Source: an uncultured Bacilli bacterium (lineage in GTDB: Bacteria; Bacillota_I; Bacilli_A; RF39; UBA660). From it: 59,914 nt of DNA. A program made the translations under genes and the position numbers. Shown piece after piece: positions 4,828 through 6,109 of the stretch. The notes beneath the pieces were generated by a model. The model ran no database searches, was not told the DNA's origin, and worked only from the letters and a program-made list of their open reading frames with translations. How positions within the stretch are numbered: the first letter of the stretch is position 1; each line of letters opens with the position of its first letter. The DNA lies in NCBI GenBank assembly GCA_944363705.1, contig CALVUY010000001.1:1-59914 (forward strand). The letters run 5' to 3'.

Positions 4828-5265
4828 ATGTCATTATATGATAGAATGCTTAATATTGCTAATATAGATAAAGAATCTATTATTAGAAAAGCAATAGAAA
4901 ATACTAAAAGTGACTTAGATGGATTAGAGTATGAGAGAATGTGTTTAGTATATAATTGGTACTTATATGAAAATCTAAAAGATATGTCATGTCTTGCTTA
5001 TATAGTAGATACTGATGATTTAGAATTTCATTATAAACATAGATTTGTTTTAGTACCAGATGATGATGGTAATTATTATTTAGCAGATTTAACCTATGAA
5101 CAATTTGGTACAGATGATGAAGTGCTAAATAAATTATATAATGATGGTTATGAAAAGATAGATAATGATAAATACCGTTACTATTTGAGTAAGGTAACTG
5201 GTAGTGATAAAGATATAACAATTGATGAAAGCCTGTTTAGGGAAGCAAAGGGACTTGGTAAATAA
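4828..5265 (+). CDS. hypothetical protein, translationally coupled to ppdK
   Basis: 145-aa ORF. ATG lies 1 nt after the ppdK TAA. No family recognised by eye. Confidence 0.55.
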   Translation: MSLYDRMLNIANIDKESIIRKAIENTKSDLDGLEYERMCLVYNWYLYENLKDMSCLAYIVDTDDLEFHYKHRFVLVPDDDGNYYLADLTYEQFGTDDEVLNKLYNDGYEKIDNDKYRYYLSKVTGSDKDITIDESLFREAKGLGK

Positions 5266-5347: not shown

Positions 5348-5376
5348 TTGACATTTATGTCAAAATATAGTATATT
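5348..5376 (+). promoter_or_regulatory. sigma-A type promoter for the repeat RNA (TTGACA - 17 nt - TATATT)
   Basis: TTGACA at 5348-5353, 17-nt spacer, TATATT at 5371-5376. The -35 sits inside the perfect palindrome TTGACAtttaTGTCAA (5348-5363). Confidence 0.6.
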
Positions 5377-5406
5377 ATTATTGCATTTAAGAAATGTAAT
5401 ATGTAC

Positions 5407-5510
5407 ATGTTAGCCGCTTATGGATGGTGCGGGTTATAAATGATTCCAATCGCGAAATGTTAGTCGCTTCCGAGTGGTGCGAGTTATAAATGATCTCGGT
5501 CGAAAATGTT
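5407..5510 (+). ncRNA. tandem-repeat RNA, putative type III antitoxin (ToxI/antiQ/CptI-like): 2 full units plus 5 nt of a third
   Basis: Units 5407-5456 (50 nt) and 5457-5505 (49 nt) both start ATGTTAG, and ATGTT recurs at 5506. The point substitutions between units fall in two predicted helices and keep pairing (pseudoknot). They lie between a promoter and a terminator, just upstream of a ToxN-like ORF. Confidence 0.7.
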
Positions 5511-5511
5511 T

Positions 5512-5547
5512 GAAAACTTTATTCTTTTGAATAGAGTTTTCTTTTTT
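5512..5547 (+). terminator. rho-independent terminator between repeat RNA and toxin ORF
   Basis: GAAAACTTTATTC / GAATAGAGTTTTC forms a 13-bp stem (one G-U) with loop TTTT, followed by TTTTTT. Confidence 0.8.
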
Positions 5548-5638
5548 CTAAAAAATAGAACTTTTGTACTTGCAAACAAAGTTATAATTTGATATATTTT
5601 AGTTACAAGTTATATTTGTTATTGGGGGTGCTTATAAA

Positions 5639-6109
5639 ATGAAAGTTAAAACGGGATATATTTATCATATTAAAGATGAATTTTTTGATAAGATTAATGA
5701 CAAAGGTTTAATGATAAATCATGAAAATGGACGAGCAAGACCTACTTACTTTACGATTAAAGATAAGGATATATTATGGTTTATTCCATTAAGTAGTAAA
5801 GTTTCTAAGTATCAACCTATAATAGATAAAAAGATTAAGAAATATGGAGATTGCCGTTCTATAATGATAAGAGAAATTGCCGAAAAGAAATCGGTTATAT
5901 TATTGCAAAATGCTTTTCCTACATTAGAAAAATATATAGATCATCCGCATACAATAAATGGTGCCCCTGCTAGGGTTGCGGATAATTTAAAAGATGAGAT
6001 TTTACAAAATTTTAATTCATTATTAGCTTTAAAGAAACAAGGAATTAATTTGTTTTTCACTGATATTGATAAAATTAAAGAGATGATGCTTGAAGAACTT
6101 GGCAAATAA
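5639..6109 (+). CDS. ToxN/AbiQ/CptN-like endoribonuclease toxin (type III TA)
   Basis: 156 aa. The N-terminal pattern GYIYHIKDEFFDKIND...RPTYFTIKD...WFIPLSSK resembles ToxN-family toxins. RBS GGGGGTG. The context (repeats plus terminator upstream) is diagnostic. The family call is by eye only. Confidence 0.65.
   Translation: MKVKTGYIYHIKDEFFDKINDKGLMINHENGRARPTYFTIKDKDILWFIPLSSKVSKYQPIIDKKIKKYGDCRSIMIREIAEKKSVILLQNAFPTLEKYIDHPHTINGAPARVADNLKDEILQNFNSLLALKKQGINLFFTDIDKIKEMMLEELGK

Follow-up and report, generated by a model that had tools for sequence, protein, structure and literature searches.

Results

Layout of the locus

The stretch analysed here (the window) comprises 59 914 nt of DNA from an uncultured Bacilli bacterium (contig CALVUY010000001.1 of assembly GCA_944363705.1), and the parts of the toxin–antitoxin locus described below lie on its plus strand. 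An ORF at 5639–6109, encoding 156 aa, matches the NCBIfam CptIN equivalog NF047359.1 with 157.2 bits against a cutoff of 90 (E = 2.5e-46) and, over residues 5–149, the CptN toxin of E. rectale (PDB 4RMO; E = 1.7e-18), with the IPLSS (Ser-Ser) motif aligned. Judged by this homology the ORF is the cptN toxin gene, which identifies the repeats ahead of it as a cptI type III antitoxin array. In a preliminary description of this DNA the repeats had been likened to ToxI-type antitoxins; the likeness holds for the H-type pseudoknot but not for the family, which is CptIN and not ToxIN. A Pfam search of the toxin with E values up to 1 returned no family, and hence no ToxN match, and an Rfam search at a permissive threshold (E up to 10) returned no ToxI, only matches at chance level, mostly to the terminator; membership of ToxIN was rejected on these grounds. 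The toxin was not recognized by PADLOC.

The locus consists, in order, of a promoter, about 2.1 repeat units, a terminator and the toxin gene, the start of which lies 133 nt past unit 2. [quoted passage not shown] The antitoxin-array promoter (5348–5376; TTGACA, a 17 nt spacer and TATATT) agrees with the consensus at 11 of 12 positions and is kept upstream of the array in related loci. At the predicted transcript start there is a 5' leader hairpin (5383–5397; GCAUUU-AAG-AAAUGU). Unit 1 (5407–5456, 50 nt) has its first stem, S1, at 5414–5417/5429–5432 and its second, S2, at 5421–5424/5445–5448, with an A5420/A5449 mismatch, an A-rich loop L2 at 5433–5444 and the 3' tail UCGCGAA; unit 2 (5457–5505, 49 nt) has S1 at 5464–5467/5479–5482, S2 at 5470–5474/5495–5499 and the 3' tail UCGAAA. 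The start of a third unit (AUGUUU, 5506–5511) supplies the junction for a predicted cut at the 3' end of unit 2, and in nearly all loci unit 2 is followed by AAAUGUU. No further units were found anywhere in the window beyond 5407–5511. The intrinsic terminator (5512–5547), a 13 bp hairpin followed by a T run, is the sole terminator-like site in the region, with 0.1 expected by chance. A candidate second promoter (5570–5598; TTGCAA, a 17 nt spacer and TATATT, with a TG), recognized by its consensus match only, lies between the terminator and cptN.

The nearest relatives are metagenome-assembled genomes from uncultured Bacilli/‘Tenericutes’ of the gut, Candidatus Onthousia among them. Immediately after the pyruvate phosphate dikinase gene, and ahead of the array, there is an ORF (4828–5265, 145 aa) that has no Pfam or NCBIfam family. 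A C-terminus homologous to it precedes the array in one related locus (L063), and there is no sign that this ORF belongs to the toxin–antitoxin system.

The two repeat units of the window

Over a common core of 46 nt the units differ at positions 8, 14, 15, 17, 18, 26, 39, 40, 42 and 43, and their 3' tails differ by one indel and one change; on re-reading, all of this proved to be exactly as first described. The ten changed core positions are the two sides of five complete base pairs in two interleaved helices (8–11/23–26 and 14–18/39–43). From unit 1 to unit 2, pair 8:26 goes from C-G to U-A, 15:42 from U-A to C-G, 17:40 from G-C to A-U, 18:39 from A-U to G-C and 14:43 from A-A to C-G, while 9:25, 10:24, 11:23 and 16:41 are the same in both, such that eight of nine standard pairs are formed in unit 1 and all nine in unit 2. 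It had been claimed that every substitution is compensatory, which is correct for 8:26, 15:42, 17:40 and 18:39 but not for 14:43, where a pair is gained rather than compensated and where A14 is always unpaired. Were ten of the 46 positions changed at random, the probability of their forming five whole pairs among the nine would be about 3e-8. A Monte-Carlo criterion that at least eight of nine pairs still be standard was set aside as uninformative, since 6% of random ten-substitution sets pass it, most such sets rarely touching the stems. Calculated helix strengths are −6.0 kcal/mol for S1 and −2.1 kcal/mol for S2 in unit 1, and −4.0 and −5.3 kcal/mol, respectively, in unit 2.

A repeat search recovers the array as two copies at 50 nt spacing with 84% identity across the first 38 nt. 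Tandem Repeats Finder misses it, as a pair of copies with about 80% identity does not score high enough.

Fold and covariation

A scan of one genome per species yielded 80 loci with toxins 71–98% identical to that of the window; together with the window these provided 158 units and 94 unique cores, of which 93 were aligned without gaps and one, a unit with a deletion, was left out. In this alignment the proposed structure is formed by standard pairs in 96.1% of cells, as against 84.8% in shuffled alignments (none of 500 shuffles reaching the observed value), and in slid registers pairing is at most 55%. Six pairs in total change on both sides. Pair 8:26 is U-A in 47 units and C-G in 46, and is broken in none; 15:42 is C-G in 52, U-A in 38, U-G in two and unpaired in one; 18:39 is A-U in 68 and G-C in 25; and 16:41 and 17:40 also vary on both sides. 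When mutual information was computed for all pairs of columns, with no structure assumed, 18:39, 8:26, 15:42 and 14:43 ranked first, with 16:41 and 17:40 close behind. The 93 units contain 23 distinct S2 helices, of which only one has an internal mismatch, and A14 is unpaired in every unit that has an A there. The G-U intermediates fit an RNA transcribed from the plus strand. Although the controls applied to the covariation remove shared ancestry only in part, the number of different helices makes the conclusion safe. The search of related genomes for covarying examples, which the preliminary description had proposed, has thus lent support to its pseudoknot, both helices covarying strongly in 93 unique units from about 80 species, and the alignment supports the view that each unit would fold as an H-type pseudoknot with two stems, in agreement with the crystal fold of CptI from E. 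rectale, CptI(Er). Extensions of the helices to 7:27 and 13:44 were rejected, being paired in only 16 and 11 of the 93 units, respectively.

Columns 13 and 36 (5419/5442 and 5469/5492 in the window) covary in a non-Watson–Crick manner, with C13/U36 in 47 units and U13/G36 in 33. These columns correspond to the site at which, in crystallized CptI(Er), G13 of loop L1 stacks on G35 of L2 (PMC4627078), and 13:36 may be a conserved tertiary contact; shared ancestry is a possible cause, as position 13 also couples with its neighbour 14.

Alignment with CptI of E. rectale

The 45 nt CptI(Er) sequence, taken from a primer in Rao et al. 2015 (PMC4627078), aligns with the window unit on a shared numbering (z about 3.3; six of 2000 shuffles reach the score), in the order 5' tail, S1, S2 5' arm, S1 3' arm, UAUAAAUG loop and S2 3' arm. 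CptI(Er) is an H-type pseudoknot in the crystal, and its A-rich loop makes an A-minor twist along S1, in which A29 and the kink base U30 are essential, their mutation abolishing antitoxicity (PMC4627078). The UAUAAAUG segment aligns with A27–G35 of CptI(Er); across the 93 units A30, A32 and A33 are invariant and U31 nearly so at the sequence level, and it is A30 and U31 that fall on A29 and U30 of the E. rectale RNA. A14 of CptI(Er) falls, by alignment only, at the position of the unpaired A14.

Lineages set by array position

Exactly two adjacent units are present in 73 loci, representing 55 distinct arrays. The cores are identical in none of the 55, and the two units have the same S2 helix in few. 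For 102 of 110 units the nearest relative occupies the matching array position in a different genome, and for about two it is the unit's own neighbour. The typical unit 1 has C8-G26 and U15-A42 and the typical unit 2 has U8-A26 and C15-G42, pairs 8:26 and 15:42 being anticorrelated, and the 3' tails also differ by position, NYGNGAA in unit 1 and NNGAAA in unit 2. The earlier notion of two distinct antitoxin units is in this way supported, unit 1 and unit 2 being lineages set by array position. Their conservation is nearly equal, with a mean entropy of 0.39 in unit 1 and 0.45 in unit 2 and the same invariant positions. Position-specific lineages under nearly equal conservation indicate, therefore, an old duplication with very little homogenization since, both copies having been selected for the fold. 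Among the 26 loci with toxins at least 88% identical to that of the window there are five different unit-2 S2 helices, and the toxin therefore tolerates change of the helix sequence.

A few arrays have come close to homogeneity, with 0–1 stem differences between their units (L064, L067 and L070/L073). Among relatives of the E. rectale array the units differ at two to four positions, one of these loci (L086) having a compensated change from A10-U23 to G10-C23. CptN clusters number 988 at E values up to 0.001, and a wider metagenome sample of CptN loci forms a spectrum in which many arrays match at 38–40 of 40 positions and several clades have diverged. In a clade with 46 nt units, one locus (L153) has S1 as CGCC/GGCG in one unit and CGCU/AGCG in the other, and the units of its relative L139 are identical.

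Variant loci

Several loci depart from the common arrangement. L028 has a single chimeric unit at −182 from the toxin start, in which a unit 1 5' half continues into a unit 2 3' half and U15 wobbles with G42, and its toxin ORF is intact; such a chimera indicates that recombination between units occurs. L062 has lost both units along with part of the promoter, its leader running into the terminator some 140 nt ahead of the toxin start (1501), and the toxin ORF (155 aa) is still intact; this could be explained by an assembly artefact, by a point mutation that inactivates the toxin or by cover from another locus. The toxin genes of L020, L045, L063 and L065 are interrupted by stops or truncated with the array present (a single unit being detected in L063), and these look like decaying loci that are losing the toxin first.

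An additional array or single unit of a different unit type is found, at positions counted from the toxin start, in L042 (−420/−371), L075 (−447/−397) and L064 (−384). These orphan elements and the toxin-proximal array are 200–250 nt apart, the orphans upstream, and no toxin gene intervenes. In L060 an insertion of about 230 nt, with promoter-like sequence and a structured-looking G+C-rich stretch, separates the terminator of the array (−407/−357) from the toxin gene. An Rfam search of the extra upstream arrays and the insertion in L042, L060 and L075 returned nothing. The only viral match for the clade of the window is L088 (IMG/VR UViG_3300011008_002676), a predicted viral contig of 63 kb that carries cptIN with two 49 nt units and a toxin 73% identical to that of the window.

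Leader and candidate toxin promoter

Hairpins in the leader have stems of 7–14 bp in most of 60 distinct related leaders, as against mostly 4–6 bp in shuffled ones, and the stem sequences vary. Such a hairpin could stabilize the antitoxin transcript. The base preceding unit 1 in the window is a C (GUAC^AUGUUAG, 5403–5410), in contrast to the A that precedes the predicted cut at the other two junctions and at the E. rectale site; a C is found there in about one-fifth of related arrays, and in these unit 1 may keep the 5' leader.

In the spacers of L001–L080, which separate terminator from toxin gene, 66 of 73 loci have an extended −10 motif (TGnTAnnnT), at a median of 32 nt ahead of the toxin start codon; of shuffled spacers 31% have one. 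Type III loci are described in reviews as being transcribed from a single promoter, and a promoter-like element before the toxin gene would mean that the toxin may be transcribed independently here. The candidate toxin-proximal promoter may be new.

Discussion

We consider it probable that the array is the antitoxin half of a CptIN system, composed of CptI-type pseudoknot units that are old, unhomogenized paralogues, both kept functional and both accepted by the same toxin. Our working model is that the promoter at 5348–5376 drives a short transcript with two pseudoknot units and an incomplete third, which would end at the terminator (5512–5547). Each unit would fold with S1 at 8–11/23–26, S2 formed by 14/15–18 with 39–42/43, and the A-rich loop lying along S1. 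CptN is known to cleave its repeat precursor after an adenine, leaving a 2',3'-cyclic phosphate, and in CptI(Er) the cut is at A45^A1 (PMC4627078); by analogy, the toxin of the window would cut at the A-rich junctions, the predicted site being GAA^AUG. The CptIN(Er) complex is closed, with two toxins and two RNAs, and the 3' tail of the RNA sits in the toxin active site (PMC4627078). In the same manner CptN would stay on the single-stranded tails of its products, presumably giving a closed and inactive 2:2 assembly of toxin and RNA in which the units would act as antitoxins, and the presence of two units at nearly all loci is compatible with a two-RNA complex. The units would have persisted as old paralogues without homogenization, and as selection on the fold keeps both functional, changes in the helices survive only if compensated. 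Since the invariant parts are common to both units, the same toxin should accept both, and as both RNAs come from a single transcript and two are present in the known complex, mixed complexes are likely to be the default, with no special role for either unit. A complex of the toxin with both kinds of RNA is plausible, and, given the location of the 3' tail in the E. rectale active site and the position-specific tails found here, some functional asymmetry is possible.

It is tempting to carry this asymmetry further and to suppose that the units are specialized, forming an obligate asymmetric complex of two toxins with one unit 1 and one unit 2, probably assembled in cis from one transcript, in which differing 3' tails or helix stabilities correspond to different roles, for example those of a labile sensor and an anchor. 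Position identity persists across toxins 71–98% identical to that of the window, the tails are 7 nt in one position and 6 nt in the other, the strengths of S1 and S2 are reciprocal (−6.0/−2.1 kcal/mol in unit 1 and −4.0/−5.3 kcal/mol in unit 2), the anticorrelation of 8:26 and 15:42 points the same way, and nearly all arrays have two units, matching the two RNAs of the CptIN(Er) complex (PMC4627078). Yet homogenized arrays exist (L064, L067 and L070/L073, with 0–1 stem differences, and L139, with identical units), the crystallized E. rectale system itself has identical units, a single E. rectale repeat is fully antitoxic if overexpressed (PMC4627078), L028 has one chimeric unit beside an intact toxin gene, and the 5' tails and all invariant positions are common to both units. 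We regard obligate specialization as quite improbable, and are more doubtful again of the proposal that the units are not interchangeable, with an asymmetric two-toxin complex in which tails and helix stabilities tune the cutting, holding or release of each RNA. Were that true, and were the toxin to have its own promoter as well, this would be a type III system activated via two different RNA antitoxins. An alternative that we judge unlikely, without dismissing it, is that divergence has itself been selected, either because unlike helices avoid mispairing in the precursor or because lower identity guards against deletion by slippage or recombination. Inter-unit recombination does occur, as the L028 chimera and the loss of both units in L062 illustrate, and the S2 arms pair less well between units (3.15 and 3.82 of five) than within them (4.47 and 4.64), with cross-unit arm duplexes in the window that are essentially nil (+0.3 and +0.5 kcal/mol). 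The same cross-pairing, however, is obtained between unrelated loci (3.15 vs 3.17 and 3.82 vs 3.90), and the test for co-adapted non-cross-pairing of the two units of a locus, resting on this comparison of within-locus with between-locus values, was negative. The nested fold of the real array (−38.4 kcal/mol) is also no different from those of artificially homogenized versions (−37.1 and −39.7 kcal/mol), in a method that cannot model pseudoknots, and in E. rectale and in ToxI identical units are no bar to a working array. We found no evidence of specialization or co-adaptation beyond compensated drift.

That only one unit is a working antitoxin, the other being a decaying copy, we consider very unlikely. 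The S2 helix of unit 1 is weak, with four pairs and an A-A mismatch (−2.1 kcal/mol), and the same question has been left open for the non-identical repeats of tenpI (PMC12283969), but in both positions S1 is paired in 100% of cases and S2 keeps about 4.5 of its five pairs through independent compensatory changes, the entropies are near-equal and the invariant loop and junction bases are the same; in the alignment, A14 of CptI(Er) moreover shares its unit position with the A14 that is unpaired here. There is hardly any likelihood that the repeats are small peptide ORFs or DNA operator sites rather than an RNA element. Each unit does have an in-frame ATG...TAA of 10 codons, but the predicted peptides differ non-conservatively (MLAAYGWCGL and MLVASEWCEL) and no ribosome-binding site precedes the ATGs, nor is any peptide sequence seen to be conserved across loci, and against either version of this reading the changes sit exactly at RNA-pairing partners, G-U intermediates occur on the plus strand only and the RNA is homologous to one that has been crystallized. 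The array is best understood, in our view, as a pair of old paralogous pseudoknots that are both kept functional.

This reading gives an evolutionary answer to the open question on non-identical type III repeats, in that both copies are clearly held to the fold in the clade of the window. A 2025 survey called toxI and cptI repeats nearly identical (PMC12283969). The units of the window differ at 10 of 46 core positions and do not conform to that account of cptI, which is a descriptive generalization and no defining mechanism and fails for a large clade of gut Bacilli and for at least one other CptIN clade. The preliminary description had likewise stated that characterized arrays have near-identical units, and this is true of E. 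rectale, where the units are identical, but non-identical repeats had already been described for tenpI (PMC12283969). The failure of Tandem Repeats Finder on this array means that loci of the kind are probably under-counted in surveys based on that program. An RNA family model, which Rfam lacks for CptI, could be built directly on the alignment of 93 units, and natural variants are at hand with swapped helices, homogenized arrays, a single chimeric unit and a toxin gene without an array.

Comparison with known systems

The locus resembles CptIN of E. rectale in its toxin family, in its layout of promoter, about two repeats, terminator and toxin gene, and in the numbering of the RNA unit with its stems S1 and S2. 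It differs in the length of the units, which are 50 and 49 nt here as against 45 nt in E. rectale and 40–48 nt in the family range (PMC3401426), and in the segment joining the S2 5' arm to the S1 3' arm, which has four bases here (an invariant UGG and mostly U22) and three in E. rectale. It also differs in the ten core differences between its units, those of E. rectale (L081–L083) being identical, and in the position-specific 3' tails and the conserved promoter-like element between terminator and toxin gene. With ToxIN of Pectobacterium atrosepticum and Bacillus thuringiensis it has in common tandem H-type pseudoknot repeats which, in those systems, are processed by the toxin and inhibit it in a closed ring (PMC4627078, PMC5086642), but ToxI has identical repeats of 34–36 nt, base triplexes and 3:3 hexamers, and the window has no database match to ToxN or ToxI. 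The tenpIN system (Sci Rep 2025, PMC12283969) also has two non-identical repeats, each capable of forming a pseudoknot, and in that report too it is asked whether both are functional; the toxin is of another family, however, and the folds were predicted there with no covariation reported. The system, its fold and its mechanism are thus known ones, and the long-kept, diverged and position-specific units are a new twist that has not been described before.
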